Shown here: piece by piece, positions 2,005-40,917 of the stretch
Numbering within the stretch: position 1 is the first letter of the stretch
Layout of the letters: each line of letters starts with the position of its first letter
From: Folioceros fuciformis
Taxonomy: Eukaryota
Length of the DNA stretch: 40,917 bases
Direction of reading: 5' to 3'
Assembly (NCBI GenBank): GCA_049999805.1
Contig: JBNGIO010006043.1
Coordinates: forward strand, 1 to 40,917
Position numbers and translations under genes: made by a program
The notes under the pieces: model-generated
The model's database searches: none
The model's input: only the letters and a program-made list of their open reading frames with translations
What the model was told of the DNA's origin: nothing

Positions 2005-2014
2005 TCATTATTAC

Positions 2015-3389: not shown

Positions 3390-6300
3390 CATCTATTCTG
3401 TTAAAGACATGTTGTCACAATGCAAGATTGTTGGCCCTTCTTGCTTCATACCTAAGTCTTCACAAAGCTTCCTTTCCCACTCAGCCTCCTTAATGGCTTC
3501 AATGAGTGCCTTGTACTCAGACTCTGTGGAATACAGAGAGCTGGCTGCTTGTTTTCTACATGACCAATTAACTACAGAGGAGTTGGCTAGAAAACAATAA
3601 GCCGATATAATTTTTCAAGTATCAGCGTCAATGGCCCAGTCTGCATCTACATAACAAGTGAGCTTAAGATGCTTCTTCTTAAATGAGCTTAAGAGCTTAA
3701 GATGTTGTGTTTATCGCAAAGACCATAATTGGATGTGCCCTTGAGGTACCTCATGATACGCTTGAGAGCTACCTAGTGATCCTTTCCTGAGTTTTCAAAG
3801 AACTGAGCAATTGCATTTACAGTGTTGGAGATATCAAGCCTTGTTTGATTACTCAAAAACGTAAGAGTACCAACGGCCATACGGTAAGGAATATTCTCCA
3901 TCTCTTTCTTGTCCTCTTTAGATTGTGGACATGAGGCAAATGAGAGCTTGACGCCAAAGGCACCTGGAGTGTTTGATGCCCTTGCACCCTCCATGTTGTA
4001 GCGTTTGAGCATACCAGCTACTTCTCTACCCTAATGAAGATAAATAGCACCTGTACTATCTTTGTGTACATGCATGCCAAGGATATACTTAACCTTTCCC
4101 AGGTCTTTCATCTCGAATTCCCTGCTGAGGTCTGCCTTAATCTTGTTAACTAGTTCTACGTTATTTCCTCGAATGGCCAAGTCATCCACATAGAGAGCGG
4201 CTAGCACAAGAGAACTATCCTTGCATAGAACATAGATGTTAGTATTAGCTTCACTTTGGATAAAACCTATTTTCTTAAGATAAGTGTTCATCCTCTCATA
4301 CCACAGACGTGGGCTTCACTTGAGTCCATAGATGGAGCAATTGAGTTTACACACCTTGTGTGGGTACGTCTTGTCTTCATAATTCTGAGGCTGATCCATG
4401 TAGATCTCTTCCTGAAGATGACCATAGAGAAAGGCCGTGCACACATCTAGCTAATAAATCTCTAAGTTGAATTCAACACATAAAGCTAGAACCATCCTAA
4501 CCGATGCGGCTTTAACTACAAGTGAGTAAACCTTATCGCTCTGATAATCAACTCCTCTTTCTGACTATACCCCTTAGCCACTAATCTCGCTTTGTAGCGA
4601 ATTCTAGGCTCAACTTCTTGGAACTTAGTCTTAAGAACCCATTTGCACTTAATGCTAGTTCTACCCTTAGGCAGGCTCACTAGAGACTAGGTATTATTTC
4701 TGATCAATGAGTTATACTCATCATCGACGGCCAGCTTCCATTTAGCTGCCTCAGGTCTAGAGTAAGCCTCCTGCAAGGTTAAAGTATCTCCCTATGCAAC
4801 ACCAACACGTAAGGCATAGAGAGCATCCATTGAATCAACATAGGTTAAACCAGCTTGATTAAACTCAATGTCAAACGATTGTTCCTTCCAAAGGTGAGGT
4901 TGGCGCACAAGAGTAGGATATCTACGCTCAGGAGCAACCGTTGGCCTAGGAGGGGATGGAGGAGTGTGGAGAGCATGAGGAATATCATGAGGCACCATGT
5001 GATCAAAACCAACATGTTCAACATCACCTTGTTCCACAGGTAGGTCCTCCGCTACTCCCTCGTGATCTATCTCCATGTCCCCCTCTTGAGCAGGAATAGG
5101 TGGCGTAGGAGCGGGCTGCATGTGTGGAACAAGACCAACAACTGGCGGCACCGGACCTGCTTCAGGGATAGGAGCCATAGGAAGAGGAGGAACACCAACA
5201 GCGGGAAAAGTAAAGGACTGAACGATGTGTTCAAAACAAATGGCACTAGGGGAGTGTGGAGTGCTCGAGCCAGAAGAAGCACCATCAAAGACGCTAGGAG
5301 GAAGCTCCAAGGGTGTCCCAAGAGCAGGCACTAGCTTGGCTTCATCAAAAGTTACAGTGCGCGCATAGATTGGAGTCCGAGTGGCCATGTCCACGAGCTT
5401 GTAGGCTTTGCGAACATTACAATAGCCCACAAAGACAAGCTTTCGAGCACAAGCGTTAAGCTTATCACGATGCTATGAAGGAACAAGAGCATAGGCCAGG
5501 CAACCAAAAACACGAAGATGTGAAATTGGAGGCTTGGTCCCATGCCAACACTTGTAGGGTGTATGGCTGGAAATCGCCTTGGTAAGGACCCTGTTCTTAA
5601 TGTATGCCGCAGTAGACACAGCCTCAGCCCAAAAGGACTTGGGCAACTGAGACCAGGTCAGCATGGCACGAGCCATGGACATCAAATCGCCAGGTTAGCC
5701 TTCTCGGCCACGCCATTCTACTCAGAGGTGTAAGGTACAGTGAACTGCCTCAAGACACCACTCGGCTCGTAGAAACCACGAAACTGATGATTGTTGAGTT
5801 CCCCCACATTGTCGAATCGAATACATTTAAATTGACGGCCAGTCTGTAACTCGGCCATAGCAACAAAAGGTGAGAACACATTAAACGAGTCTCTCTTAAG
5901 TTGGATGGGAAACGCAAATGTATATTGACTGAAGTCATCAACGATAGTCATAAAAAGGTTAGCCCTGCCTAAGGACGCAACAGGGAGAGGACCACATAGG
6001 TCTACGTGGACCAGGTCAAGAGGCGTAGTGGATCGACGAGCAGGAAGAGTAGGATATAGAAAACTTCTCTATTTCGCAAGCACACAAGCTTCGCAAAGAG
6101 GCAGTTTCGAGAAAAGCATTGGAAGTTTATCCCGATACAAATCCTGCTGAGTCGTGGCCAAAAGCCGGGCTGGATTAAGATGTCCAAGCCGACAATGCCA
6201 AAGGAGAGTGTCAGTGGGGTGGGATCTCCTCAAAGGCTAGTTGCCAGGAGAGGAAACCGCAAGGGAGCCAATCGCCGTAAGCACGGGCTGACCTGAGAAG

Positions 6301-9300
6301 ACATACAAGTCATGACGGGGACGACCTCTAGCAACAATCACATGGGGTTTAGAGAACTGATATAGAAGGCAATCTCCAGACCCAAACTCAAGACGAAAGG
6401 AGCCATCCCAAACAAGTTGTCGGACAGAGATGAGATTCTTGGCCATCTGGGGAACATGTAAAACTTGAGAAAGCACCATGAGGGATCTGTCATCCAGAGT
6501 AAAAGCAGCGGAGCCAACCCCCGCAATAGAGAGGCCAGAGTCATCTCCAAGGAGGACGAAGCGCTGAGTGTCAGTAGCCGCCTCGTAGGTGGTGAACATG
6601 GTCTTGTGACTACATATATGCGTTGACGCAATAGAATCAATCAGCCATGACTATCTGTATTCAAATGCCACAAGAAAAATTCCAGGTGAAGAAGGATTCT
6701 TGGCCTTGGGCGAGACAACAACGGTGTTAGCTGTACGCGGCGCATGCTTGGTCTCACCTGCTTGCTTCTTCCTACACTCTCGTTCCCAATGACTCGGCTT
6801 TTGGCACCAATTACATGTGCCTTGCCGCTCAGGAGTCTTGGATGAGGAGGTTGCTGAGGAAGAAGGCTTGTAGGAGCCATGGGAATTGTTCCTGTTATTA
6901 GATTTGTTAGAAGGCGTACGCTGTTGTTGACGTCCTTTGGCGACGAACATGACCCGGTCGCCTCCATGTTTTGAAGTCCCGACATTGAACCTGGCAGACT
7001 CCTCTTGAAGGAGAGCTTTAGCAATCTCGGACACAGTGATGTTGGGTACCATACCCAACTGCACAGCCTGATGTGCATTTCTCACCGTTTGGTTTTGTGA
7101 GGAAACAAATGTATAGTAGCCAGCCGGGAGGCTAGCCAATAACTGAATACCAGCTTCAAATTTGGTGATGGTTGTCTCAAGAGTAGCAAGCTGGGCTCGC
7201 AAATATCGAAACTTGCTAATGTGCTAAGCAATGCTGTCATTGGGGCCCATGTGAGAAGAATAGAATTCCAGGCATACCGTGACAAGCGTCATCACGGTAG
7301 TGGACTGATAGATGTCAGTGATTTGCTTCCAAGCTTCAGCAGATGTGGACGCACCATCCGTATGGTGTAAGGTAACCTCATCGAGGCTAGAGATCAACAT
7401 CTGCATAGCTTGTCGATCTTGACGAACTCAAGCATCAATGGCAGCCAGATTAGCAGTGGGCTTGGGAATGGTTTCTTCCACGATGGGAAGAAGATCCTAA
7501 GTGTTGAGCGCAGTCTTCATGCGCTTTGACCACACCTCAAACTTCGTACCGTTAAATCTATCCTTTTCCTTGAAGTTAGTATTGATATTAATGATGTTGA
7601 AGTAAGGTTGAAGTGGTGAAATACCAACTGGGGGTGGAGGCAGTGGGTTGCCTGCTGGTCCACCAAAAGGTGGTGGGTTACCGGTTTGCCCACCTGGAAG
7701 TGATGTGGGTGGTGACGGGGGTCTTTATCCTGGCCTTGGAGACCCAAGGAACCCCGACCCAGAGGTAGAAGCGCTTAACATCTCTTGTGGGTTTTAAACC
7801 AACACGTAAGCCGACAATATGTTATGACACAATGCCGAGAGTACCAATGAAAGAAGAATCACAAGAAATTATTTAATAAAAGTATTTCCCTTCGTCTTTT
7901 AGGATCCACCCACCACAGTTATTTCCTCCCTTGCTTCAAGTGATCTAAAGGAGAGGAGGAGAAGGCTCGGTGACTTCAGTGCTCTCTGAACTGACACTCC
8001 CTTGAAATTCTTGAATTTGGGTTGTCAGGTGGAGAAGATCTTCGTTGGCCTTGGCCACTGCTTGCCAGAGAGCAAGAAGTCTGGCAGGCCGTGTTGGTGG
8101 ATTGAATGGAACAAGAGAGTCTCTAGACAAAGGGTTCTCCAGACAAGTCTTCAATGGGTTTCCGGTGAGGATGCACCCGCATTGCCAAACCGCGATGAGG
8201 AGGAGGCAAAGGATTGGCCTCGATCTTCACGGGTGCAAGGTTGAGTCCTTCTCCAGTCAAAGCCGTAGGAAAAACACAGGTAAGTCCTTACTGTGCCAGA
8301 AAATCGCCATGAAGGGGTGCCAACAAGTGTGAAGAGGCACAAAATGGAACTGGTGCCAAACTTGGCCGCATTCACATTGGTTCGTGGATAAAACGAACCC
8401 ACCTCCACGAAACGACGAGTTAAAACGTCGTTTCGGGGGTCTCGCACCGATTCGGGGGTCACGCACCGATTTGCAGGTGCGTGCGCCTCCTCGCGTGCAG
8501 GGCAAGCGCCTTGGGCGCAACACTCCACCGCGATCGCGATGGCGGCAGCACGCTCTTCACTGAGCGCCTGCAGCCTCGACCGCTCGGGACGGTGGTCTAG
8601 CGACGGTGCGTCCCAAAAAATGCCTTCCTCCTGCACAGTAATCAAACAAGATTGAGCTCCTGGCTTGACGATTTGCCCGTGCACCTGGGTAGAAGCAAAT
8701 CCACCACAATCCGAACAAATCCTCATCCTACAGGGTTAGAGAGGAGAGCATTATCGATTGTCTGCTCCTTAGGAAGGGGCAGAAGGCTCCGAGACGCCCC
8801 GGGGACATGATCATCTTCTGGAAAACCGTCGTGAAGACAATCAACTTTTGGGCTTGGTCTTGGTGTGCAGGTGCAAGCACGGGTGCGATTTCAGCCAAGT
8901 GCTCAGGTCCTTCTGGTAAGGTGGAGGTCCTCTCCAAAAATCAGGTCATGAATTGAAGCAAAACGGCCGAAATCCTCCCCAACAAGATTGCTAGAGAAAA
9001 GCATTCAGAGGAGCTCTCCTATCACAGATTGCACCCATCTTGGTGCGATTCGATGGGCAAGAAATGGCGTTCATCTAAGGCGAGTTGGCCTAGGCAATCG
9101 TGCCTCAGAAAGATGGGGAAATCGTACATTCCGACGTCGTCTCCTGGCCATGATCGGGCTGGGAGGTTGCGCACGACGAAGTGTAGGGGAGAGGCAGAAT
9201 GCCTCTCCCTTTACTTCGAAGATTCATACAGCCTGCTGTATGTTCATATGTACACGAAAGCATATTTAAATTGTAGAAAGTTGACAAGGGTTTGATAGCC

Positions 9301-14485: not shown

Positions 14486-15915
14486 ATGGGAACGGTTAGC
14501 AAGGAAGTGATAGTGGGGAAGGAAGGAAGTGAGGTGAACGTGTACCAACTGGAACGAGGTCCCATAGCTGTTAAGGTCACTAATGTAGGTGCCACAATCA
14601 TGTCAATCACGGTGCCAGATGCTGAAGGTGAGTTTGTGTTCTCCAGTGCAAACCGCCTCGTGAAGCACTCTCTCTTGGTGTTGTGTGTTGACTGATGTGC
14701 AGCAGAAGGGGTGGGGTATCATCATCTCCATTTGACTACTTGGTTTGGGTGGGTTGTAGGTGAAGTTGACGACGTAGTCCTGGGTTTTGACAGCCTCAAT
14801 CCCTACCTGGCAAACCTTCTCAACCTGCTCATGCTGAAGTTGTTGAATTTGCATGCTGAAGCTGTTGAATTTGCATGTTCGCATGGTTTTTCACAATCAC
14901 AATCAAGGTGCTGGAATGCTAGAACTTGCGAGAAAGGGGCGATGAGTGCTAGAACTTACAAGAAATGGCTGATGAGTGCAGAACGGCACTTCCCCCTACT
15001 TCGGTTGCATAGTAGGGAGAGTGGCCAACCGGATTGCTGGTGCGGAGTTCACACTTGACGGGGTGAGACACAAGCTCCCTGCAAACAATGGTCCCAACAC
15101 TCTTCACGGTGGAGAACAAGGGTTTGATAAGGTGCTCTGGCAGTCCAAGGAGGTGGACAATCCGAAAGGGCCATCGGTGCAGTTCACCTATCGAAGCCAT
15201 GACGGGGAGCAAGGTATGCATGCGTCCATGATCGCTGCTGCATCCAGCCGCCAATTTTTGTCCACTAAACCCTGATGTCTTCAAATCGTTGACAGGTTTT
15301 CCAGGGGACCTGGATGTCGCGGTGACGTATACCTTGACGTCGGACAAGGAACTGGAAACCAGGATGGAGGCCAGTCCCAGCACTAAGGCCACTCCTGTAA
15401 ACTTGGCTCAGCACACATACTGGAACTTGGGAGGCCACGGCAGCGGTGATGTTCTGGAGCACGAGATACAGATATTCGGTGACCACATCACCCCAGTGAA
15501 TGAAAACCTCATTCCTACCGGTGAGATCAAACCTGTAGCGGGAACTCCGTTCGACTTCACGCAGCTGCAAGTTATTGGGAGCCGGATTCACCAAGTCCCG
15601 GGTGGCTACGATCACAATTACGTTTTGCGGAAAGGAAAAGACTCTTCAGAGGTGGATCTGGCAGCAAGAGTGAAGCACATCAAGAGCGGCAGGGTTTTGG
15701 AAGTACTGACTAGCGCACCTGGAGTTCAATTCTACACCGGCAACTTCTTGGACGGGATGGCAGGCAAATCTGGAGCCGTGTACAACATTCACGCAGGCCT
15801 GTGCTTGGAGACGCAGCACTTCCCTGATTCCGTCAACCAGCCGAGCTTCCCTCCCATCATTGTTCAACCTGGAGAGACATACAAGCAAGTGATGATCTTC
15901 AGATTTTTCCCGTGA
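14486..15915 (+). CDS. galM: Aldose 1-epimerase (galactose mutarotase); exons 14486-14627, 14760-14809, 14982-15213, 15296-15915
   Basis: Spliced protein contains DVVLGFD, PYFGCIVGRVANRI, LHGG, GFPGDL, NLAQHTYWNL, GYDHNY, GVQFYTGNFL and CLETQHFPD. Intron 2 is GC-AG. Confidence 0.95.
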
Positions 15916-16521: not shown

Positions 16522-19500
16522 TCACAAACCGCGGTAACTTTTGCGGTCCGTCCGAGATACCTCGTCTAGGTTACTCAAAAACCTGCAATTCGAACGGGAC
16601 GGGATTAGAGGCGGAACCCATGGGAAGAGACAAGCCACTACGCCTGGTCTTACTTTGCGGTGTTGAGAACTGTGGAGCCGCCGAGATACACTCTGGTGCT
16701 TGGATTGCCAGCGTTTTGCAACGCTACAGCTCGAGCCTCCTCGTAAGTTGAGCCGCCAATGATGAATACAATCAAGTCTTGTGGGGGCCTGTGACCACGG
16801 AACACAATGCGATCATCAGAGACAACTGAAATAGGTCAACATTTGGATCAGACACAAATCCAGCCTGTCCAACCTTGTTGCCTGCTGCATTATGTTGCCA
16901 ATTGCCGGATAATCCATGTCCTTCACCCGTAGCTTCACGACACTTTCGATGATTTGAGTGACGAGGGGCTGGTGCTGTGTGTACACGTTCTCAACGCCCT
17001 GACAGAAAGAACACAATTTTGTCAGTGCCGTTGGTAGTCATGAGGCATGAACAGAGGATGACAAGACCCACAAACTTCACCCAAAGACATCTAGGAAAGG
17101 ACCCACCTTCAACCCTCGGGCCATGTTTCGGGCCCGGTTGAATAAATCCCTGTTTCCATAAAGATCTCCAGTCCGTTTATCCACACCAGCTTGCTTCAAT
17201 AACGTGCGCACAAGCTGAAACAGACAACACAGTGCCTAATTACACAAAACCTCCACAACTCTGTGAGACCTTCCCGACTGGCATTTTCAGTACCACAATC
17301 CCAGCAAAAGACAAATATAACAACCATGGCGCATCATGCTGCTGTCGCATGTCCAGATTCAAAGCACATGGACGTTCGCTTACATTGAAGTTGTAGTTAC
17401 TGCTGCGTGACGAGAGTTTAGAAATCAGCTGCTCCAACATCATTGGGTTTTCTTTCTCATATCGAAGAGCATACAGCATCACAAGGCGTATTCTGTCCAT
17501 GTCAGCTATCCGTTCATTGTTCAGCTGATTCACAACAGCCTGTGCAAGACCAGAAGTAAGCTCTCATCCGTACACTACGCCTTGTACTTGCAAGACTTCT
17601 GACTCCAAGCCCAAGGATATACCTCAAAAGCAGCTTGTTGTCCAGCATTGCACGCAAGTTCTTGTTCTGTTTGTGAAACTGACATCAGTTGCCTTTCATC
17701 CACAATTCGACTCATCTCTGTCATCATAGTCACATGTTTGGAAACATTGCCCTGCATTTTCCGATACTCGGGATAGTTCTCAACAAAGCGAACCATGTCA
17801 TCTGCATCCAGCACCTGTTGTCTCAGAACACACACGTCACACCATCCCACTAAAGCTTCAAATACACGGCCTGAAGGACATGTACCAAGAGATTGGATGT
17901 TCTGGTTGCTTTTAGCGGTATGCTGAAATTCATCCACCATCTTCTTTATGTTGGCTCCAAGATCCCCAAAGTTCTCATACATATTTGACTTGAAAAAGGG
18001 ATCTTGTTCTGACGATAGAACCACCTCCTAAGAACAACGAGCCTCACACTGTTAGTGGATTTACAGAATCCATACAGATCTAAGATGCCCAGTGATCTTA
18101 GAGCATACCTGCTGATCTGTGGGAACCTTAGAGAGATGCTTCAAGTCCACTCTATTGTCTTGAATGCCTATCAGCTCATGGACCATGGCCTGCATCAAAG
18201 GCAGCCGTAGACAGTGAACAGGGAACCATGGCATCTTCCACAAAGTCTCTTTGCCAGTGGCAGGCAAGTTTGCAGCTGGGAATGAGATAGCTCTAGTTCA
18301 TTGGAAACAAAATCGTGCACCACAAAACCTGATATGTCCACTGGTTCAGAAGAGGCGTCACTGGATCGTCCCGTCTATCCATAATCAAAAGCAGAGGATG
18401 AACATCGGGTCGTCTGAAGTCAAACAGCCCGCTCTCAGTTTCGTACATTAGCTTCTGCAGACAGTTCAAATAGTCTCATTCGCATGATTTGGATGAACAA
18501 TCAGCAAATATATGTCATGAGAACGGAGGAAAATCATTCAGCAACATGGAGACAGACAAACACACCGCTGAATCTTGGGCAATTCGACGTGCTATCTCGG
18601 AAGTACGAGAGTATCTCACGATGGGACGCTTCTTTAATGAGAGACAAAAAGCTGTAATGCCTTCCACAATCCGATCTACAACCTGTTGGCTCATTTGTGG
18701 GTCCAAGACTGTTGGCATCAGACAAACGTGATTCGCGGGAAGATTGAGGGAGAAATGGAACGGATCAATAGCAAAATAGTCTGCAAAGTACTCCTGCAAA
18801 CCACCACCTTTCATGATTTACAAAACGTGCCACCGCTGTTGGACACAAGGGCCTGAAGCAGAAAACTGACAAGCATTTCCTGCCAAACCACAAATCCAGG
18901 ACTTACAACACGCTTCAACAAACAATACCGCCACATTTCAACATCGCACAGACACCAAGCTACACACAATACACAGCAAGAAAGGACCCCTTCCACAGAT
19001 CTAGGTAGCTTAACCACACCAATCATTTGAATAAACCCTTACTTGCACTGTTTGGACAGCGTCATGTTCATCTCCATCAGCCAGCATTTGAAGGTACGAG
19101 TTCTTCACAATGTTGGAAAAAACTGCCAAAGAGAACAAGTCAGCTGCACTGCGTCCTGCAGATCGGACGAATTCCACATCACTATCTTGAAAACCTGCTC
19201 CACGATACTCACAAACATGATACTCTCCAAACCGCGGATTCATTAGATGGCGCTTCAGAAGCTGCACATTGTCAAGAGTAGGCCGTAGAAAGCAAATTGC
19301 CTTCAAATGTGTCATGACTGTCTCGGCTCCTGAATCCAGCATCTCGACCAAGAACACCTCCTTCTGCAGCAACTGCGTCTGACTCAAAACCACACTCACA
19401 ATTCCAACCTGCAATCCGGAAAACCAATGATCAGCTCCTCGACCTAGAAGGACGTGCACTGACGTTGTCCATCTCAGGACAGTGAATGAGAAAAACATCG

Positions 19501-19628
19501 GCAGATCGGCCATATCTCATGCATGCACGCCATCTCACCGTCTGCGCATCCAGCAGAATAACTTTCATCCCGGCTATGTCATTCACCATCCGATTTATGT
19601 ACTCCCGGACTCCCGCTACCAGCACCAT
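16522..19628 (-). CDS. VPS45: Vacuolar protein sorting 45 (Sec1/Munc18 family), multi-exon
   Basis: Exon translations: MVLVAGVREYINRMVNDIAGMKVILLD, SQTQLLQKEVFLVE, HLKAICFLRPT, QEYFADY, QAMVHELIGIQDNRVDL, NMYENFGDLG, GNVSKHVTM, LYALRYE, VENVYTQHQP, IVFIIGGSTYEE. Last exon FLSNLDEVSRTDRKSYRGL* ends at 16522. Confidence 0.95.
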
Positions 19629-20451: not shown

Positions 20452-21333
20452 CACTCCAGCTAGAGGACCCTCTTGTCTTCTGTTCCACCTCCGAAAATTG
20501 CAACGTGAGCCATCGATCGTGCTGAACATGGCAGTGGTTTCCGTGTTTGTAATAGTGACATGCCGTGATTCTACAGGGTTGAGTTGTGGGAACGCTGCGA
20601 GGGCTGAAAAAGCTTAACTTGCTGGCGTGCAGCCGGCAGCATCCCTTGTCTTTTGTGCTACTTCCAGCCAGTGCAGTCAGACCCGAATCCTCGAAAGCTT
20701 TCATTGCTGCCAGAGGAAGGGCAGGACGCTTCTTAGGCCATTTGGATCGTCCTTTCACCTCAAAACCGTCATGCCTTCTCTTCTTCTACGAGAAAAGAGG
20801 CTTTTACAGAACGAAGCAGGATGAAACCACAGAGCATGTAAAGCCAGCGGTAGGTAGAAAACACGGTGACAAGTGTAACAGAACCCTAATCGGATGACAA
20901 AGCAGCCCCGACTCCAAATCCCTTGTGGAAGAGTCTCTTCCTCTTCGATCCATGAGGGAAAAGGAATGCGGAGGATGCGTCCTGTTCAAGTATGATAAGA
21001 GTATGGGAGGAGGAAGTCCTAGGAGACGTATGTACTTTCGATCCAAGAGCGTCTCATGGATTTTCACAGCCTGTCAGTCAATCTTAGCGAAAAGCCTCCA
21101 CTTGGGTTCAGCCACTTTCTCGTCAGTCCGCTGCTTGGGTCTCTCCAACCAGAAGGTATGACTGACCTTGCTATTCGATTAATCAAGAATCCTGAATATT
21201 TTTTGTCAAAAAAAACTAAGGAAAATAAAAAGTCTCTCTCCATCAGAGACGCTCTCTAGCGCGGTCACTTTGGTGGACAGATGCCATGCAGTGTGTGTTG
21301 TTAGGCCCATCCTTGGACAGCGGTCCCTGATCG

Positions 21334-24246
21334 ATGGCCACAGTCTGGCAACCGGATTCGTTGTGGACTCAACAGAATCGTGGTGTGTGTACAAGGATTC
21401 TGCCAACAGCTCGGGCTCCCGCTCACTTCAATTCATGGAATGAAGCCCAGGCAAACAAGCAAGCGTCCAGGTGCAGTAGTTCGAGGAGCCCAGCACTTGT
21501 CATTCCGAGGAAATGTGTGGGTGGAGACGGATTATCCATGGATGGTCGTCGCCAGGAGCAGGAGCACTTGTGGCAACAGTTCTTTCTGGAGCCTACCATG
21601 TGGTGGGACAGCAGACGAGATAAGAAGAGCTCACATGCGCCTGACTTCCGGCGGAAGGGGTCAGGGGAGGTCCTGTGGTTAAATAGCATCCTCAAACCAG
21701 CTTGGGTGGATGAGCAGCTCGTGTGTTTGGATGAGCAGATGGGTCATGGTGCCTCTGCTGTCAAGTCCAGCTCTCCGGATAAGCCTGAACCCAGTGGCAG
21801 GAGTGCAGGATCGGTGACGCCTGGATCAGTGAGTATGTTATGTCAGCAGGGAAAGCTTTCTGAGGCTGTCGTAGCCCTGGAGTGTTTGGGGGAGACAATG
21901 TCTGCCATTTCTCCGTCTCTCTTTTCCACTGTGCTGAAGCTGTGTGCGGCTAAGAAGGATCTCGTTGTTGGGCGACGAGTTCATGAGCTGACGGTCAAAC
22001 TGGGGTACGATTCGAATGCGTACTTGGGGAAGCATATCTTGCGCATGTACGCATGTGGGGGTAGGCTAGAGGAGGCCATGAATGTGTTCACCAGGGTGAT
22101 CAAACCAGACGCCTTCATGTGGTCTTCCATAATCTCTGCACATGCTAAGCAGGGGAAACCTAAGGAGGCCATACAACTGTACCATGAGATGGGTGGGTCG
22201 GGAGTGAAGGCGGATGCCCACGTCTTTGTAGCTGTCCTTCAAGCTTGTGCATTCGCTAGCGACTTGGAATCTGGTAGAAAAGTGCACTGGGATGTGTTGC
22301 ACAGTGGCATTCCTCTGAACTTGTTTGTTGGCACCTCCCTGGTGGGAATGTATGCAAAATGTGGTGCACTGGAGGATGCTCGAAGGGTTTTTGACAACTT
22401 GGCCACCAAAGATGTGGTGACATGGACGGCTCTGCTTGGGGGCTATGCCGATCGTGGCTTCAGCCAAGAGGCTCTTGTTCTGTATGGACAAATGGAGGAG
22501 GAGGGCCTCATTGTGGCTGACCGTGTTACTTTTTCTTGTCTTCTGAAGGCATGTACACGCGCTGGCGACGTACTGAAGGGCAGGCAGTTGCACTCACAGA
22601 TAATGAAAGGGGTGCTGCTGCATGACACCGTGTTGGGCAACAGCCTGGTGGACATGTATGTAAAATGTGGTGAACTGAAAGATGCACATCAGGTTTTCGA
22701 CAGCTTGGCCACAAAAGATGTGGTGACATGGACGACCCTTATTGCTGGGTATGCACAGCAAGGTCTTGGCCAAGAGGCAATTGGTCTGTATGGGGAAATG
22801 CAGGAGGAAGGCCTGATTGTGGCTGACCATGTCACTTTTGCGTGCCTTCTGAAGGCCTGTACGAGCGCTGGTGCCTTGCAGAAGGGCGAGGAGCTATATT
22901 CACAGATTGTGGAAAGAGGACTCTTAGATTATCCCCTGGTGGGCAACTGTCTGGTGGACATGTATGCAAAATGTGGTGAACTAGAGGGTGCACGCCGGGT
23001 TTTTGACAGCCTGGCCACGAAGGATGTGGTGACATGGACCACGCTGATTGCTGGGTATGCAAATCATGGGCTTGGCCAAGAAGCAATCGTTCTGTCTGCA
23101 CAGATGGAGCAGGAGGGCCTGATTGTGGCTGACCATGTTACTTTGGCTTGCCTTCTGAAGGCCTGTGCAAGCACCGGGGCCTTACAGAAGGGCAGGCAGC
23201 TGCACTCACAGGTTGTGGAAAGAAAATTGCTAGATAACGTACTTGTGGGCAACTCCCTGGTGGACATGTATGCCAAATGTGGTGAACTGGAAGATGCACG
23301 CCGGGTTTTTGACAGGTTGGTCACCAAGGACGTGGTGACTTGGACCGCCCTGATATCTGCGTACGGTACTTGTGATGACGGTCACAGTGCACTGGCTTGT
23401 TTTGATGAAATGTTGCTTGCCGGTATTCAGCCTGATGGTGCTACATTATCTTGCCTTCTGGCAGCCTGCAGTCACGAGGGGCTTGTCCACGAGGGTCGCA
23501 AGCACTTCGATTCCATGGCTGAACAGCATGGTATCAAACCCACGGTTGAGCATTACAGTTGCATGATTGATCTCCTTGGGCGTGCGGGCTATCTAGATGA
23601 GGCAGAGAACATGCTGTTATCATGTGAAAGCCAAAGCAATGTCGTGGGGTTGACATCGTTGTTGAACGCCTGCAAAAGTCACGGGGATATTGAGAGGGCC
23701 ACGCGGTGCTTTGAAACTCTGCTCAAACTAGAGCCTCAGAGTGCTTCCGCATATGTGCTCATGGCCAATGCCTACGCAGACGCAGGTAGATGGAGCGATG
23801 TGGACAGGATCGAAACCCTGAGACTGGCCGCAGGAGCTAACAAGAAACCTGCCATGGCAACCATCGAGGTGAACACGCAAGTACATAGATTTGTGGTGGG
23901 AGAAAAAAGAGAGGATATTGCACTTCAAGTAGAGAGCACGAATGCTCGGTTGAAGCAGGAGGGCGGCCACGCCCCTCACACAAACTTGGTGTTGAAGCCA
24001 GTGTGCGAGAAGGAAAAGGAAGATGCGCTTTGCGGGCATGCTGAGAAGCTAGCTCTTGCATTTGGTCTCTTGAACACTCCGAGCGGGACACCCCTGGTGG
24101 TAACCAAGAATCTCCGCATGTGCAGTGACTGCCACAGTTCCACGGAGGTCATGTCAAGGCTCGAACGGAGACACATTGTTGTAAGGGATGGGTACCGCGT
24201 TCATCGATTTGCGGATGGATCTTGCAGTTGTAAGGGTCGACCTTGA
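21334..24246 (+). CDS. PLS-class PPR protein with E1/E2 and a DYW:KP (GRP-terminating) deaminase-like domain and an N-terminal PDF motif; candidate organellar U-to-C RNA editing factor
   Basis: Intronless 970-aa ORF with P-L-S triplets and P2-L2-S2-E1-E2. KPAMATIE replaces the PG box; HAEKLA; CSDCH; C-terminus CSCKGRP. Ser/Arg-rich N-terminus is compatible with a transit peptide. Confidence 0.95.
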   Translation: MATVWQPDSLWTQQNRGVCTRILPTARAPAHFNSWNEAQANKQASRCSSSRSPALVIPRKCVGGDGLSMDGRRQEQEHLWQQFFLEPTMWWDSRRDKKSSHAPDFRRKGSGEVLWLNSILKPAWVDEQLVCLDEQMGHGASAVKSSSPDKPEPSGRSAGSVTPGSVSMLCQQGKLSEAVVALECLGETMSAISPSLFSTVLKLCAAKKDLVVGRRVHELTVKLGYDSNAYLGKHILRMYACGGRLEEAMNVFTRVIKPDAFMWSSIISAHAKQGKPKEAIQLYHEMGGSGVKADAHVFVAVLQACAFASDLESGRKVHWDVLHSGIPLNLFVGTSLVGMYAKCGALEDARRVFDNLATKDVVTWTALLGGYADRGFSQEALVLYGQMEEEGLIVADRVTFSCLLKACTRAGDVLKGRQLHSQIMKGVLLHDTVLGNSLVDMYVKCGELKDAHQVFDSLATKDVVTWTTLIAGYAQQGLGQEAIGLYGEMQEEGLIVADHVTFACLLKACTSAGALQKGEELYSQIVERGLLDYPLVGNCLVDMYAKCGELEGARRVFDSLATKDVVTWTTLIAGYANHGLGQEAIVLSAQMEQEGLIVADHVTLACLLKACASTGALQKGRQLHSQVVERKLLDNVLVGNSLVDMYAKCGELEDARRVFDRLVTKDVVTWTALISAYGTCDDGHSALACFDEMLLAGIQPDGATLSCLLAACSHEGLVHEGRKHFDSMAEQHGIKPTVEHYSCMIDLLGRAGYLDEAENMLLSCESQSNVVGLTSLLNACKSHGDIERATRCFETLLKLEPQSASAYVLMANAYADAGRWSDVDRIETLRLAAGANKKPAMATIEVNTQVHRFVVGEKREDIALQVESTNARLKQEGGHAPHTNLVLKPVCEKEKEDALCGHAEKLALAFGLLNTPSGTPLVVTKNLRMCSDCHSSTEVMSRLERRHIVVRDGYRVHRFADGSCSCKGRP
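22321..23350 (+). repeat. 306-bp tandem repeat (S-P-L triplet, ~3.3 copies) within the PPR gene
   Basis: S motifs start at 22321, 22627, 22933 and 23239, exactly 306 bp apart, with near-identical DNA (e.g. atgtatgcaaaatgtggtg, gatgtggtgacatggac). Confidence 0.92.
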
Positions 24247-25412
24247 GGGTGATAATGACCAAGACCTCGCCTCACCTTCGGTAGCGGACATGCATCTTTC
24301 GCTTTATCCCCTCTGAAGCTGCAGCATCACCAAAGAAGCAACACCAGGGGGGGCGGGGGGGGCCGCGGAGAGGGGGCTGTTGTCAGCCACATTTAGGGTA
24401 TCTCGCAAGAAGCGGGAGGAAGACGTGTTTCAGATTGTTAATCGCAGGGGCTGCTTGCGGGTCTCAGGCAGGAGCCATTTGAAGGAACTCCCTCTTTTGC
24501 CGAGACTTCCACCATGAAGCCAGATGTTTGCAGTTCTGAATCCAGCAAGGGTTTGCCGGGAGATGCCGGTGCTGCAAGCTGCATGTCGGCCTGTTCAGAA
24601 GAGCCGAATTGGATGACATGCATTGTCCTAGAGGTGAGTGTATTGGACAAGCTGGCCCTTTGCACGATCCACATTCGGTGGCTACCTGGGTCTCCGTGTT
24701 GCTTCTTGCGGTGAGGCGTGGACAGGACTTGCAGCCAGTCCTGCACCGTCCTTGTAACTTGACATAACGAGTCCCCCCCTGTCCAAGGTGTCCGTTATCC
24801 CGTAACTTGACTATTCATGACAAATTCCCCTTCTGCACTCCCACCATCGTAAACCGTTCCCTGTCACTGGCGCGTTACTGTACATGAATGACAGCCCCTT
24901 TTGCCTGTCCTGTTACAGGACAGTGAGAGATGAATGCAGGGCGCATTGGGCAACGCGCCCGCGATACGATTGAATACCATGTCCATGGAGTAAAATTTGA
25001 ATCTATGATTATATTTCTGCTGGAAATCTGGGCAATATGCATATATACATATGTATACATATGCTCAATGAAGCTGAAGACTTGAAGGATGGGCATGGAA
25101 GAGCCTTGAGAGGGATCTTATATTTTCTATATATAGATAACTCGTGTAACGGGAAGGTGTGAATCGTTTGGGAAGCCTCCTCAGTTGGCTGTCCGTCTGA
25201 GAGGCGTGTAGAGTATAGAGGAGCTGAAGGTGTGTAGTAGGCTGAGGACTTGGCATGCCTGACACCATGCTCCTTCAATTCAGGCCCCAGCAGGCGATGC
25301 GTCGAGTGAAGTGAAGGGGAGTAGATGTAGCTGTTGCTGCTGCTGCTCTCATTACCACGCGATTTCTGCTGGATATGGGAGCAAGTGGAGCCCGGTGAGT
25401 GAGCAGGCCGCC

Positions 25413-28400
25413 ATGAGGTACTCGGACGGGCCCAATACCAGGCAGAATGGGAAGAAACAACGGTGCGATCCGGTGCAGGAGACTCTCAGGTGATAATCTC
25501 TGACGCGAGACTCTGCAGGTGTGTGGCTGTGCTGCCTGCTGCTTGCTCGGGGGACTGGGGGAGTGGTGACACGGCTCTCAGGCAACCCTAAACCGGGCTC
25601 ACACTGCTAGGGGGCCCGGGTGGTTGAGATTAGACGGGAGATTGTGGGTGGGAATGCGTGTTAGAATGGTCTTTGGCTCGGAAGAGGGGGCTTTAGCATT
25701 AGAATGCGGGAATTCGGCTTTGTGATTGGATGGGAGGGGCTTGTGCCTGTTAGTCTGCTGCATTGCTGTAGAGTCCAGCTGGTTGCGTGCTGAATCCGGA
25801 GAATCCGGGTGACTGATGGATAGTCATGCTTTTGTGTCGCGGTGCTTGGCAACAGGAAGATCGATCGGACGAAGGAAATTGGTCAGGATGATATTGGCCA
25901 GCTGTACAATCTGGACAAGCCTTACTGTAGTGGTTGTAGGACGAATTCCAAAGACTCGCCGAATTGCTTCTGCGGGTTAGTCCCTACCAGCGGCGTGCGC
26001 AAGCAAGGTCTTTGGCAGAAGGCTAGCGAGATGATGGCAGATCTTGGTCCTGATCCGAGTGAGAGGATGCGGCCGGATGGTAGCTCTCCTTCGGGGTTGA
26101 CAAACTTGGGAGCGACCTGTTACGTGAATAGCGTCTTGCAATGTCTGTACATGAACCGGGCGTTTCGGTATGGCGTGTTGTCGGCTGAGCCTGAATTGGT
26201 TGAACGGCAACCTGTGCTATACCAGCTTTGCCGGCTTTTCGCATTGCTTCACTGTGGGAAGAGAAATGCCGTCGACTCAGCTGCATTTGCTAGCACCTTG
26301 GAGCTCGACAATGCTATCCAACAGGATGGCCAAGAGTTCATGAAGTTGCTGCTTTCTCTGCTGGAAAGGGTTCTCAGCCAATCCAGAAATCGACATGCAC
26401 AAAACGTGGTTCAAAATGTTTTTCGGGGGACATTCTCATATGTCACCAAGTAAGCTGCTGCTGCTACCACAGCTTGTGCTGCCACCGCCGTTGACTTTCA
26501 AAAGCTGCTTGATATGTTTTCGAGATTGCGACTAGCTTGTAACAAATATTGGTGTTTGACTTTCGATCTGCCCATGTCGTCCTTGCAGGTGTGCAAGATG
26601 CCGACAGGACTCTGATGCCTCTAAGCAGTTGGTGGATTTTTATGAGCTGGAATTGAATGTAAAAGGATTTTCTAGCTTGGAGGAGAGCATGGAGGATTAT
26701 TTCAGTGAAGAGAAGCTGCAAGGGGAAAATCAATACTTGTGTGAGCTTTGCAAAGTCCGTGTTGATGCCACTCACTACACGCAACTACGGTCTCTGCCAC
26801 CCGTGTTGAATTTCCATCTGAAGAGATTTGTTTTCAACTCCAAGGTTTTGTATCAGGCTTTCCTCTTGAAGTGGACGCAGTGCTGGGTTTCGAATCACAG
26901 TGTCCTGAATCTGACAGGGTGCTTTTGCAACTGAACTGTGTTGCAGACGGCAACAAAGAAGAAGGTGACTTCCAAGTTCAGCTTTCCAAGGACTCTGGAC
27001 ATGGCACCCCGACTCTGTGGTTCAGGGGTTGCTGGCTCTGGGGCCGGAGGAAGACGGTCTTTGTACACACTGTCTGCAATTCTGGTGCACAGAGGGAATA
27101 TGGCAAACAGTGGCCACTATGTTGCACATGTGAAAGATGAGTGCACCGGACAATGGTGGCAGCTTGATGACGAAGACGTCACAAGTCTGGGATACCACCC
27201 ACTTGGAGAGGTGCCAACTGGAATGGCTCGGAAAAGGGACGTGGAAGGGAAAGATGGAGAGAGGTCTTCAAGGAATTTGGATGGCCCTGGGGATGGAAAT
27301 GCATCCTCTGTGGATCAAGATGTGCTCACATCCGCTGATGCATACATGCTCATGTACAGTAGTGTAGATCAGCCGAGCAACAGCCATGGTGCAGTTCTGG
27401 AATCCTTGCCAGAGCAGCTACAACGTGAAGCGGATCAAATAAATGAAGAATTTTGTAGATCTTGTGATGAGTACAATGTGAAGAAGGAGTATGTTATGCA
27501 TGAAATTGCCAATCGCAAGGCAGAAGTGAGGGACACACTTGCTGAGGTGCAGGTTAAAGAACAAGAACTGACGTTTCATTGGATTTCAGCTGACTGGCTC
27601 CGGAATTGGGCAGACAACTTGCAACCACCGTAAGTAGACAAATGAGACCCTTGTCTGCGATTTGATTACACTATCTTGCAACTCTGACAGTTGGGAATGC
27701 TGTACTTGTGCAGTACCTGCAAGTCTAGGGCTCTGGGGTTTGCAGCTTGCATTGTCTGTGTTTGTTGCCGTGCGTCAAGCTGAAGGATACAACACATTGT
27801 CAGAATCATTTGATCCCTGACAACAGTGGGGATCCTGGATCTAAGCAATTGCTGGAAATGGTTGCAGACCTCCCATTGATAATCATCAACTTCTTTGTCA
27901 TCATGAGAAGGTCCCGCCAAAGAAGCTGCCACTCATGAAGCGTCTCTCTGTGATGGCTTGGAAGCTTTTAGAAAGTAAGGTGTGTGATTCACATCATGTT
28001 CTTCTTGCCTGCCGTAGTTGTGGTGCTTGTCAAGCCTTCAGTTCTCACGGCCTTACTGGATTTCAATCCAGAAGATGATGCATTTACCGAGTCAGGAAAT
28101 CTGCGAATAGTTGCCAACAGAACCAGGGGGTATGTTGCCCATGGATCTTTTCAAAGGAGTTGCTTCTTTGATGAAAACAGCGGAGGGACTGCTGCATAAC
28201 CTTCATGTCCTTGCCTGCTGCATCTGCTGTTTGTTGCGTTGAAGTATGGATCTGGACGTCTAATCCACGTTATTTGAGAAAAAATCTTCTGAACCTTGCA
28301 GTTCTCAATGGACCACTCAACTCGGTGAAGCTTGTCATTTTTAGTTTCTCAACGGTGTCTTTTGCTGTTTTACCCAGTATGGTGGAGGTCCCGCACTTTC

Positions 28401-35713: not shown

Positions 35714-38700
35714 TTAACTCGCATTCAAGCTGTCCGCCTGGCTGGTAGACTGGGGCTGCACTGGCTGGGATGGCGAGATGACGGCACTGGGAGTCTCTCT
35801 GTTCTGACTTGACGAGGCCTCTGATACGGAGTCCTTGGAAGAGGTCATGACCAACAGTGTTGAGTCATGGACATGAGAATCAGTTGACGAAGATAGGGGG
35901 GCAAGTATTGTCGAGGATGAACCCATTGGATAAGGAGCCACGGCCATATCTGCAAGAGACGATGCCGATGGGCTATAACTTAGAGCACTCAGAGGATGAT
36001 CAAACTTGCAAGTTGGCCCGTACTTGCAGACGCGATTCTTCATGTAGTAATTACACGGTGGAGCTCCCTGCACAACACAACGGCAGGTTTCAGTATCAGC
36101 ACATCCCGTCAATTATAGTCAACGCACAGAGCAACATTTTCGGAAGCTGGGTTGAATTTGGCTCACCGGCCGAAGAGGTAAACCCATGGGACTCAAGGTG
36201 CAGGTCGGAGACGGTGTGGCCCGATCTTTCGGATGATGGAAACGGCAAGTTAAGCCGTATTTGCAATCACCTGTTTTCATGTAATATGGACACTCTTGTA
36301 CGCCAGGCCTTTCTGGGAAATTCGTGTCTTTTGGCACCCCAAGACCTGCCGGTTGCAAGCCAGCCAGGCCCATGGCTGAAGAGGTCGGCATGTACGGTGA
36401 GAAGGTGGCATGTACTCCGATCTGATCAGCTTGGGGAGCCGGTCCATAAACATAGGGATGTTGAGCATCTGGAGATTGGAGTGGGCCCTGTGCACGTGCA
36501 TGCATCACATCAGTCCGTAGCTAACTGGCCATGATTAGGTCTAGGTTTAGGGCAAGCATATAAAGGTAAACCCCCTCAAAGTTGCATGTAAATCAGCGCT
36601 GCCCTCCTACTTACTTCTCCACTTATACCTCAGCGTGCCGACAGCGCTCGGCTGGACTCTTAGCATCGGACTGCGACGGCTGGGTGGAGCTGGGAGAGTA
36701 AGGACAGGAAAGGAACGCAAGCAAGCTCAGACTCTAGCAGCACCACATAGTGACTAACATACAGGATTTCGGAAGAGGTTGCAGAAGGTGTGGAGTGACA
36801 AGGGGAGCACAGGACAAGAACGCAAGCAAGCAAGACTCCAGCCTTAGCAGCCTCACACACGGGATGACATTCAAGAGCTACGGAGGAGGTGAGATTCTTA
36901 CTTGGTACGTACTCCACGGTGGCACTGGCACGATTGTCTGTGGAGATGGCACTAGGACCGATGTGTAGCTGGACTGCAGACGAGGAGTCAGAAAAGGTCC
37001 TCTTGCAATTCCTGGCCACGAAGGAAGCCCTCCTTGGTAGTGTGACGGTGCAGCTCCTGATGGGCCCCCTGGATAAATAGTAGGCGGGCTCAGCATTGCT
37101 GGCTGTGGATGATGAAACTTGCAGGTGACACTGTATTTGCACGAGCTGGTCCGCATGTAGTATGAACACTCCTTCTCATTCTGCAACAAGCAAATGTTGA
37201 GTGAGAACTCATTTCCATAGAAAGGAGTCCAAACAATCAGCGCTGCCATCAGCAGTCAAGAGCAAATCAGGAATTGCCATCAGTTAGCTCTCGACATCCA
37301 CATTCGCAAGCATCACTAACCGGGCGGAGAGGTAGACCCAAAACATTCAGTTGTACTCTCCCAGTTGATCCTGCTTTGTCTCTCGGGTGATGGAACTTGC
37401 ATGTTGCCCCATATTTACAGTTCCCTGTTTTCAGATAGTACTGCAGGTTACGGGCCGGGCAGAGAAAGGTTAGTAGGCATCCCTTCCACCTGTCCAAAGT
37501 TTCATTAAAATGCACGCAAGCAGAACCCACTCTAACAGCGTTTAAGGCCCAATGAATTTGGTTGCCTAAACATTGTCAATCAGGTTATTCACGAAAGGCT
37601 AGTGTGTGTTTTCTTGGCCATGCTAGTCCCTACATAACATAGCACTTTTGCTGCTGGTGTTTCCAAAAGGGCTGAAGTGCACTCTTAGTGCACTCAACAA
37701 GTATAAATTGTTGCCCAATTGAGGAGTTAGGTTTATCCATGGATCACCTACTAACAGTTAGGGTTCCCGAAAAGCCAGAGAAATTTGTACCTGACACTCT
37801 AGCTGCCCGGGTCTCTCAGGATACTCCCCTTTACCTCTTGCAACAGCTGCAGCCTGAATGAGGAAAGCAGCAAGCACAGCTCATCTCAGCTGTTGTGCAA
37901 ACAGTGAGACATTGGTCATGCTAGTGTAATAGGTAGCAAGAGAGCACAGGGCCTTACCAGCTTGCGGTTTGGAGGATGGTTAAAGCGACAGCTCATGCCA
38001 TACCCGCAGAGGCCAGTACGCATGTAGTAGGAGCAGTCTTGCTCTCCTGGTCTTTCGGGATAATGACCGGGGGCTCCATCCATGCCGTCGGGAGTCATCT
38101 GCCACATGTCTGCATGAAGAATACAACAGCAGATACGATAAGTGCTCAGTCAGAACTTCCGGAAGGGCCAGATCTGAAAGTGCAACGAGATTCAGTCTGA
38201 GCGAATTTTCGGCTCAGTCCTGAATTGCTAAGTGAACAATGATTCTTCTTGAAGAACAGGCAGTGTCAGCTTCGGTTAAGGCATCAATTCAAGATGTGGT
38301 TCCAGTTAGCCATATTAGAAAAACAGAAGTTTGTGGTGTAGCTGCATTCAAGCCTCACATCTACAAGGCCAGCACAATCCAAGCAGAAGCGTGCAAGCCC
38401 TTGTGGAAAAATCCACGACAACCTGGCTTGCTTTGTGAGTGACAAGATGACCTGCAGGGGAAAGCAACCCTTGAGCCCCATGGGACTCAAGACGGGGAGA
38501 AGCAGATGACACAGAAGCCGCAGGTGATTTGTCAGGTGATGGATCCCTGATGGAGGAGGCCATGTTGCATACGGAGACCCTGCTCAAAAGTAGCTGTAAA
38601 GCTGCTGCTGTTGGCCAACAGCGCTACAACCCATTTCTTGTGCCAAGGCATGCCCTGTACGAACAACCATGTTCCGAATCGATCCAAACCGAAGCCCTTT

Positions 38701-39544
38701 CACATGAGAGCAGATGGACGATTCGAGCTGTGCCACAGGATGGCGGGGAAGCTGGCGGTGCAGGTGGATCGCTTTCCACGTTCAATTCCAATGCGGAAAT
38801 CATCCATCAGTAAGCATCGAAAAGCAACGATCTGACAAGCACCCCGCCACCGGACCCGCACGAGGCAGTCACCTATCCCAGCCCCTCCCGGGATCTACTC
38901 CTGCACTGCTCCACGACTGACCATGTCGCAATTTGCAACGGAATTGACGGGGGAGGTGGAGCCGTGGAGCGGTGAGCAGATCAAGGGGATTCTGCGCTTG
39001 CCTTCCTGCAGTGGCGCACGACCTAGACCCCAGCCGAGGCTCACACTATTGCGGGCGGACACCAGATCCGGCCAGGCCAGGGGAGCCATGAAATTGGACG
39101 CAAGGACTCGAATTCCTGCAACCTGAGCCTACTTCCGTGCGCAGCCTGGGGACACATGTGAGCAGCGGCAAGAGCCCGGGGCCCGGGGTCCGGGGGCCCC
39201 GGTGAGGCTGCAAGGCAGCGTACGGCGCCGCGGGAGAAGAGGAAGAAGAAGAAGAGGAGGAAGCAGGATGCAGGAATGAAGAAGGAAGAAAGGAGCAGAC
39301 AGAAGAAGGAGGAGGAGGAGGAGGAGGCGCAGGTGGAGGCAAGAGAAGAATGAGTGACAGGCACGTAAACACGGGACTCACCGTCAATGCCACCAGGGTC
39401 TGCGTTGGGGCCAGCAGGAGAAGGCGCAACATGTTTAAGACCCCAGGCCTCGTGCGGAAGCGAGGGACCTGCCCCGGGGTCGCCAACGGAGGCGTCAAGG
39501 CCCGCGTAGGAGGAGGCCCCTTGCGGTGGAGCATAATATTCCAT
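35714..39544 (-). CDS. Five-finger CCCH zinc-finger RNA-binding protein (ZFN/C3H family), multi-exon; first coding exon ambiguous
   Basis: Five C-x8-C-x5-C-x3-H motifs with YPERPG/FPERPG and GLPLRP leaders ([50 protein letters not shown]). Conserved MWQM at 38107. Start is ATG 39544 or 38563. Confidence 0.9.
39232..39350. repeat. GAA/GGA purine-rich microsatellite tract in the first intron of the CCCH gene
   Basis: Runs of gaa and gga triplets. Confidence 0.8.
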
Positions 39545-39999
39545 CAATCATGCCCGCGTCGCTGCTGTGCTCCAGGAATTGCCAGCTTCGCTCCTTCCTA
39601 GCGTGAAATGCACGCACAATTTCAGCTCCCGGAATGCCTCCCTCGCGTTCTCCTAGGCAGATTCAACCTCCACCTCCCGGGCACGCAATTGTGACATGGG
39701 CAGCCGCAGTCGGGGGCAAATTTGGAGCCACCCCAATTTGGCCGCTTTCGCCGCTTTCAATTCCTGCTCCCTGATCCGCCACAGATCCGCCACGGAAAGA
39801 GATCGGAAAGTCTGGCCAGGCTTCGGCCCGGGGCAAGAGCTCGGGCTTAGGGGACGGGAAGGGAGCAAAGGAGGGAGGGAGGGAAAGAGAGAGGAGCAGC
39901 TGCTGCTGCCTTGCTCCTCCCGCTCCGCTCTCGCAACCGAGGAAGCTGGTCACGGCTCTGCCCGCTGCAGCAGGAGGAACAGCAGAGAGGCTGGAGCGG

Positions 40000-40540: not shown

Positions 40541-40917
40541 GGGGTGGAAGCAAGGTCGTGGCAAGGGTGCACCCTTGGCAAGGGCTTCCCCATAGCCCCA
40601 CACACAGGCTTCACGACCGCGCAGTACAGTCCTTAAGTGCGAGCGCGGAGTAGGCGGCAAGGCATCGGAGGCGGGCACACAGTTGGCCACGTCCCGGTTG
40701 TCGGGGCGTCCGCCGTCGTCGCCGTACCTGGGAGCAATCAATGGGCGAGAAGCTTTGGCACATGGGGCGGAATCGGCAGCGGGTGGACGCGTCCACCCGG
40801 TGCGTCCAGAAGCGCATTGCCCTTGGCAAGGGCAGGAAGGAAGGCAGCGCGGTTCCCCGCGCGCGGTCGGGCCCCGAGTTGCCGACTGCTTGCGCGCTGG
40901 AGCGCGCGCGGTTACAG

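Follow-up and report, generated by a model that had tools for sequence, protein, structure and literature searches.

The question raised by this locus is whether it holds an intact natural gene for an enzyme of reverse (U-to-C) RNA editing. The locus lies in a contig of Folioceros fuciformis (GenBank assembly GCA_049999805.1, contig JBNGIO010006043.1, positions 1 to 40,917 of the forward strand), and the whole of these 40,917 nucleotides is referred to here as the window. The original prediction had placed at 23842..24246 a DYW:KP-type deaminase domain ending in GRP. These coordinates delimit the DYW domain with its stop codon correctly, but they do not delimit the whole gene, which spans 21334-24246. 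Our analysis makes it very probable that 21334-24246 of the forward strand is an intact intronless nuclear gene, encoding a PLS-class pentatricopeptide repeat (PPR) RNA-editing factor with a DYW:KP deaminase domain of the GRP subgroup.

Published work is cited here mostly from those parts of the papers that were available to us. In these parts, DYW:KP domains are defined by an altered PG box, by Ala or Cys following the zinc-binding His, by a deletion of 3-4 residues and by a tail other than DYW (PMC9478123, PMC11713852, PMC11845758), and those of hornworts are divided into two subgroups, DRH and GRP, named by the last three residues (PMC9478123). The background on the class given in the original prediction agrees with them. 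Translation of 23842-24246 on the forward strand yields KKPAMATIEVNTQVHRFVVGEKREDIALQ…CGHAEKLALAFGLLNTPSGTPLVVTKNLRMCSDCHSSTEVMSRLERRHIVVRDGYRVHRFADGSCSCKGRP followed by the stop codon, and represents the last 134 codons of the frame. The domain and its key elements are as follows.

23842..24243, forward strand: DYW:KP deaminase domain, GRP subgroup, 134 residues (133 from 'KP'), identified by Pfam, phmmer, alignment, trees and a structural model.
24037..24054, forward strand: HAEKLA (in CGHAEKLA), with the zinc-binding His, the catalytic Glu, the KP-type Ala and the Lys equivalent to KP6 K693.
24103..24135, forward strand: TKNLRMCSDCH, with Lys88 (24106-24108), Met92 and the CxxCH zinc ligands.
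24223..24246, forward strand: CSCKGRP and the stop codon, with the CxC of the second zinc site and the GRP tail.
24244..24246, forward strand: stop codon TGA.

At frame residues 879-969 the Pfam profile DYW_deaminase (PF14432) scored 111.6 bits (E 1.7e-32), where the curated cut-off is 24, and 91 of its 93 positions were aligned; in a phmmer search of the PDB only the three solved DYW proteins (9KFX, 7W86 and 7O4E) were matched, with E from 2.7e-37 to 5e-27. As had been predicted, KPAMATIE stands where DYW:PG proteins have PGxSWIE, the sequence KKPAMATIEV occupying the place of the PG box (PG..SWIE), and HAEKLA replaces HSEKLA at 24037-24054. The roles of the HAEKLA residues are taken from PMC11713852 and PMC9478123. 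The zinc ligands were correctly described as intact, since the signature HxE…CxxC(H) with a C-terminal H…CxC is present as HAE at 24037-24045, CSDCH at 24121-24135 and H…CSC, the last three residues at 24223-24231. Counted from 'KP', the Lys and Met of TKNLRMC fall at positions 88 and 92, in agreement with the published numbering of Lys88 and Met92 (PMC11845758, PMC9478123). The terminal GRP in place of DYW, directly followed by TGA at 24244-24246, was likewise as predicted.

These features were then compared in an alignment of 76 rows, comprising the query and 75 matches, all obtained with it in a single word-indexed search. HAE occurs in 36 of the 76 rows, none of which ends in DYW or DFW, and HSE or HTE in 37, all of which end in D[YF]W; the three remaining rows are odd, with HCE, HCE and HVE. 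The other HAE-type rows mostly carry KPA.A.IE or variants in the box (KKPG…, KKAA…, KKLA…), and the PG rows carry PG/PA/LG…S.IE. The shortened segment that had been noticed appears in this alignment as a gap of 3-4 residues (xHP) after 'VGEKR', which is shared by the query, the four other GRP-tailed rows (P0003, P0005, P0006 and P0011) and nine DRH rows, whereas PG-type rows have xHP; its absence from most KP proteins has been reported (PMC9478123, PMC11713852). Furthermore, in the stretch CHSSTEVMS the query has Glu where PG and DRH rows have Lys. The column concerned, following CxDCH, is non-Lys in all five GRP rows (E, T, E, E and Q) and Lys in 9/9 DRH rows, and in GRP proteins the Lys that bonds the Asp of DYW is reported to be replaced by Glu (PMC9478123). 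In the 39-row alignment of E2 plus DYW (A1), all 39 rows share the H, E, C, C, H, H, C and C of the zinc and catalytic signature, the K, L and A of HAEKLA and the K, N and R of TKNLRMC, and the query keeps 20 of the 20 invariant columns. The domain thus carries every DYW:KP hallmark that was examined, namely the box, HAE, the deletion, Lys88 and Met92, and the non-DYW tail.

To place the domain phylogenetically, as the original prediction had suggested, trees of the same 76 rows were inferred by IQ-TREE under LG+C20, with the published KP1-KP6 and Anthoceros GRP/DRH reference sequences left out. In the full tree (141 columns), the 37 PG rows lay on one side of a branch with support of 100/96, the five GRP rows formed a clade (100/96), as did the GRP and DRH rows with four others (99/91), and the 36 HAE rows formed a clade with 98/79. 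In a reduced tree of 122 columns, 19 trait columns were removed (the box, the residue after the His, the gap region, the Lys/Glu column and the tail). The 37 PG rows still lay on one side of a branch with 100/95, so that the query domain does not group with PG, the outcome that had been named as one speaking against its assignment. The query was located in a four-row GRP set (100/80), an 18-row GRP plus DRH set (99/96) and a 31-row set consisting entirely of KP rows (97/89), and grouping all 36 HAE rows would need two changes, with two fern rows shifting. A quick tree without the trait columns, which had split GRP into two, was superseded by the finished careful search.

The fold of the domain was examined by an AlphaFold model of the end of E1 through E2 and DYW (168 residues, from the 39-row alignment), which had a mean pLDDT (per-residue confidence) of 91.7 and a pTM (predicted template-modelling score) of 0.82. 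Foldseek gave as the best match 9kfx_A, a synthetic PPR-DYW protein with RNA, with a template-modelling (TM) score of 0.91, a root-mean-square deviation (rmsd) of 1.7 Å and 48% identity; OTP86 and DYW1 followed, and bacterial DYW-like deaminases were far behind. The rmsd to 7w86 was 1.5 Å, and the target-normalised TM score was 0.85 to 7o4e_B and 7w86. In the model, the two helices of E2 pack against the DYW domain in the manner of 9KFX, and the deaminase fold is seen with the PG-box β-hairpin on E2. The domain is thus structurally intact as modelled.

The gene itself is contained in a single stop-to-stop frame at 21331-24246, with an in-frame stop immediately upstream and the first ATG at 21334. 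From the base composition of the window, the probability of a stop-free frame of 971 codons by chance is about 1.5e-22. The open frame, the kept invariant columns and the model support the view, expressed in the original prediction, that the editor is apparently intact. No poly(A) tract was found downstream of the stop codon, so that this hallmark of retroposition is absent. The frame on the opposite strand at 23842-24246 was dismissed for its many stops. Two homologues, P0003 and P0006, have a layout matching that of the query, with a comparable length before the PDF motif described below. The parts of the gene upstream of the DYW domain are as follows.

21334..24246, forward strand: complete intronless coding sequence of a PDF-PLS-E1-E2-DYW:KP protein, 970 codons and TGA.
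21334..21552, forward strand: N-terminal 73 residues, putative organellar targeting presequence, judged by composition only.
21553..21735, forward strand: OSB-type PDF motif (LWQQFF..WWDSRRDKK..PDFRRK..VLWL..KPAWV), residues 75-135, found by phmmer and a hidden Markov model (HMM).
21736..21810, forward strand: Ser/Pro-rich linker, from the translation, with no family match.
21811..23640, forward strand: PLS-class PPR tract of 18 motifs, from Pfam PPR families and motif-by-motif segmentation.
22326..23354, forward strand: 306-bp tandem repeat, 3.4 copies with 79% matches, by Tandem Repeats Finder.
23641..23742, forward strand: E1 PPR-like motif, from Pfam E_motif PF20431 (E 3.8e-14 for the E1/E2 region).
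23743..23841, forward strand: E2 PPR-like motif, from the translation and segmentation.

The N-terminal 73 residues contain 10 Arg and Lys, 4 Asp and Glu, and 20 Ser, Thr and Ala, a composition that is suggestive of a targeting presequence. The PPR tract was matched by the Pfam families PPR, PPR_1, PPR_2 and PPR_3 with E from 3e-81 to 1e-32, and was segmented using the motif names and lengths customary for PPR proteins. The motif lengths run 35/36-35-31 ... 35-36-32-34-33, ending in P2-L2-S2-E1-E2, which is the PLS layout, and the order is one degenerate triplet, four P1-L1-S1 triplets and then P2-L2-S2. The 306-bp tandem repeat indicates that three of the P1-L1-S1 triplets arose by internal duplication. 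The duplicated triplets share identical code residues, T/D in P1 and N/D in S1. The RNA target was predicted by the PPR code, in which TD specifies G, ND specifies U, SN specifies A and SD specifies G, with the L motifs left open. For the register, E1 was set at -3, with the edited base four nucleotides past the last PLS triplet (PMC9478123). The predicted site is 5'-G.GG.UG.UG.UG.A...U-3', covering positions -18 to 0, with G at -18, -16, -15, -12, -9 and -6, U at -13, -10 and -7, A at -4 and the edited U at 0.

Sequence, fold and phylogenetic membership are established here, and we infer the localization, RNA target and editing direction of the protein. It would be imported into plastids or mitochondria, where each motif of the PPR tract would bind a single RNA base, S2, E1 and E2 probably lying over -4, -3 and -2. 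In the published model, the zinc and Glu site would then activate the base, Lys88 would attack the C4 of uridine to give a Schiff base, and hydrolysis of this covalent intermediate would leave cytidine. This model, in which Lys88 is the nitrogen donor, was published in 2024-25 (PMC11713852, PMC11845758), so that the amino donor, called unresolved in the original prediction, is now partly accounted for. The experimental basis comes from designer proteins. KP2 and KP3, built on the GRP consensus, edit U-to-C at 26% and 22% in Escherichia coli with C-to-U undetected (PMC9478123), in accordance with the earlier statement that engineered DYW:KP proteins have U-to-C activity, and the K88A substitution abolishes U-to-C and unmasks C-to-U editing in KP2, KP3 and KP6 (PMC11713852, PMC11845758).

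Several points weigh against the view that the locus encodes a functional U-to-C editor of the GRP type. In bacteria, synthetic KP proteins become trapped in crosslinks with their RNA, and the full reaction is therefore not established even for the class; edited RNAs of the fern Ceratopteris are free of protein crosslinks. The activity of natural KP proteins was still described as unknown in February 2025 (PMC11845758), and no assay of one was found in the later literature, including the available passages of a review of December 2025. KP6 also edits C-to-U, so that the type of domain alone does not fix the direction (PMC11713852). Moreover, the duplicated triplets with their identical code residues predict an oddly periodic target, UG.UG.UG, and in the reduced tree the monophyly of all five GRP rows is supported at only 67/88. 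As for the direction, the protein might act in vivo as a C-to-U or dual-direction editor rather than as one dedicated to U-to-C. Both directions of editing have been observed for KP6, in human cells as well as in vitro (PMC11713852), single substitutions switch the editing direction (PMC11845758), and the query retains the zinc ligands and the catalytic Glu that deamination requires. KP6, however, represents a fern-type and not a GRP-type consensus (PMC9478123), and Lys88, which restrains C-to-U and is required for U-to-C (PMC11713852, PMC11845758), is present in the query. Because of this Lys and because the GRP-based KP2 and KP3, termed obligate U-to-C editors (PMC9478123), lack detectable C-to-U editing in E. 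coli, we regard a C-to-U or dual-direction role as improbable.

It is also conceivable that the gene is one of the superfluous or decaying members of a very large paralogous family, intact because it is young, lacking a cognate site and functionally silent. In four sequencing runs, contigs at 85-95% likeness pile up on the open reading frame only (4,831, 3,476, 37,448 and 17,597 records), which fits a huge paralogous family, although these depths are sums over the contigs of many paralogues and do not represent copy number. Hornwort genomes contain 1,583-2,308 PPR genes each, according to a 2026 survey of domain fusions in editing factors, and the low complexity of the target predicted from the duplicated triplets would also suit a protein of this kind. 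However, 971 stop-free codons and the retention of every invariant column of A1 speak against a decaying copy, and the internal repeats are only 79% identical in DNA, so that the duplication is not recent and the frame has nonetheless been preserved. The closest protein found is 71-73% identical over E/DYW, and the gene is therefore not a very recent copy of a database sequence. A silent paralogue is thus an unlikely explanation as well, and an intact U-to-C editing factor of the GRP subgroup is the reading that we prefer.

The N-terminal region of this editing factor contains a motif that is found in another group of organellar proteins. Residues 75-135, LWQQFFLEPTMWWDSRRDKKSSHAPDFRRKGSGEVLWLNSILKPAWV, match the PDF motif of OSB proteins, a motif of about 50 residues in these plant organellar proteins that binds single-stranded DNA (ssDNA) in AtOSB1 (PMC6963530, PMC4166229). 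An exhaustive phmmer search of 1.84 billion representatives gave 542 matches at E<=1e-3, 135 at E<=1e-10 and 17 at E<=1e-30, and many of the matches carry 2-13 copies of the motif. Pfam was then run on the best 150 of the 542, with a cut-off of E<=1e-4 for 24 of them and of E<=1e-5 for two further sets of 70 and 56. As in OSB proteins, the motif was preceded by an SSB/OB-fold domain in 33 of these 150, and 8 were PPR proteins with the motif at the N-terminus, none showing a DYW domain; the others comprised one kinesin, 106 proteins without a Pfam domain and two (P0078 and P0121) with weak unrelated matches. The non-DYW PPR proteins with the motif include P0080, which has three copies, P0145, P0185, P0214 and P0222.

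An HMM built from 331 motif segments scored the query with E 2.3e-25 at residues 75-135, and was positive in 4 of the 76 DYW proteins, namely the query, P0003 and P0006 (GRP) and P0010 (DRH); its absence in the remaining DYW proteins may be due in part to truncated gene calls. The query keeps 10 of the 10 invariant columns of the PDF alignment (A2), and the model of the motif had a pLDDT of 94.0. Foldseek of this model against the PDB gave no match at E<=0.001, and the best Z in VIA-align against 48,161 chains was 4.3, none reaching Z>=5, which is not evidence of a new fold. No usable protein atlas match was obtained for the region, and none was found among shorter proteins by word-index search. 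Pfam gave no match on residues 1-190, including SSB, even at E<=10, and no SSB in the 971-residue frame at E<=0.01. The query is therefore not an OSB protein, because it has no OB-fold domain, and the PDF motif alone is shared.

No description of a PDF-PPR fusion was found in the literature searched, which did not extend to the founding DYW:KP papers and in which the fusion may bear another name; 'PDF' and 'OSB' are absent from the main text of the 2026 survey mentioned above. The motif would probably add single-stranded nucleic-acid binding or nucleoid tethering to the protein, although this is speculative. More specifically, we tentatively consider it possible, if somewhat doubtful, that the motif serves as a working single-stranded nucleic-acid clamp in a hornwort-type subset of DYW:KP proteins (the query, P0003, P0006 and P0010) and in a separate PPR-E set with one to three motifs. 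If so, the clamp would tether the U-to-C editor to nucleoid ssDNA or to nascent RNA for co-transcriptional editing, or alternatively would hold the substrate through the slow covalent step at Lys88. The motif connects an organellar ssDNA-binding module with RNA-editing factors, and may prove of more use than the individual editing-factor gene.

Apart from the PDF motif, the gene is a real but ordinary member of an established class. Hornwort PPR proteins with a DYW:KP domain of the GRP subgroup were reportedly described by Gerke et al. in 2020. The query resembles this subgroup and KP2/KP3 in the KP box, HAE, the missing xHP, Lys88 and Met92, the GRP tail, the Lys-to-Glu exchange and the PLS-E1-E2-DYW layout, and it clusters with the four other GRP-tailed proteins, although the nearest GRP protein found shares no more than 71-73% identity with it. 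Unlike KP2 and KP3, which are consensus chimeras on a designed (P1L1S1)3 tract and are set against the query here by description and not by sequence, it is a natural protein with its own 18-motif PPR tract containing duplicated triplets and with an N-terminal PDF motif. With the DYW:PG factors OTP86, DYW1 and consPPR-DYW (7O4E/F, 7W86, 9KFX) it shares the fold, the zinc ligands, the catalytic Glu and the active-site Lys, as well as a common PLS-E1-E2 logic of RNA reading. It differs from them in KPAMATIE for PG..SWIE, HAE for HSE, GRP for DYW and the three-residue deletion, in the branch of 100/95 that separates it from all 37 PG rows, and in the expected reaction, which would be reversed. The DYW:KP proteins of ferns and lycophytes (KP4-KP6 type; for example P0025 and P0033, from Ceratopteris and Adiantum) share with it HAE, a KP-like box, a non-DYW tail and the 36-row HAE clade, but are only about 50-55% identical to it, have tails such as GDMF and EDNG, and lie outside the 18-row GRP plus DRH set. 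With OSB proteins the query has in common the PDF motif of about 50-60 residues (W..FF..P..WWDNR..K....PDF.HK....LW....P.WV), but in the query this motif occurs as one copy at the N-terminus of a PPR editing factor, and no SSB/OB-fold domain accompanies it.

The individual value of the query is modest, since the GRP kind has already been described and used for engineering (KP2 and KP3), and the gene is one of thousands; a catalogue covering 68 land plants lists 3,761 DYW:KP domains (PMC13386178). On the other hand, no base conversion in RNA editing is less well understood than U-to-C, DYW:KP domains are the sole known enzymes for it, and the activity data for the class all come from consensus-designed proteins in the published portions considered here (PMC9478123, PMC11845758). 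An intact natural gene of the GRP type with its own PPR tract is therefore a usable test object for the question of whether native enzymes complete the reaction.

The surrounding window is plant nuclear DNA, with neighbouring genes that are split into exons and with pieces of copia-type elements. The neighbours and these pieces are as follows.

3-7223, reverse strand: pieces of copia-type long terminal repeat retrotransposons, at least two of them bearing gag.
15232-15915, forward strand: Aldose_epim gene (aldose 1-epimerase), intron-containing.
17575-19516, reverse strand: Sec1-family gene, intron-containing.
25824-27633, forward strand: UCH gene (ubiquitin C-terminal hydrolase), intron-containing.

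The editing-factor gene has no introns, whereas these neighbouring genes are divided into exons. The aldose-epimerase exon is 55-67% identical to land-plant proteins, the best named ones being from monocots (64-66%) and a lycophyte (62%); it has no close named relative and is uninformative as to the taxon. A hornwort origin is indicated by the GRP/DRH subgroup of the editing factor alone. The copia pieces contain gag (Retrotran_gag_2), a pre-integrase domain, an integrase core cut by the end of the window and an SH3-like polymerase domain.

The contigs at 85-95% likeness mentioned above, which came from runs X1, X3, X4 and X6, number in the thousands on the PPR coding region only (21188-24352). 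The mapped runs cover at least three differently labelled organisms (A, B and D), and the flanks are single-copy in A. This distribution points to close paralogues that belong to a very large family common to these organisms. In run X3, whose status as RNA is a guess, contigs with zero differences were found at 21581-21864, 21837-22140 and 24369-24974, together with contigs that leave the genome at exon ends of the neighbouring genes; neither was counted as evidence of transcription. Finally, the right end of the window (38000-40917) is rich in G and C (0.58) and of low complexity, with long frames of Ser/Pro/Leu and Glu/Arg/Gly repeats on both strands and runs coding for poly-Lys.

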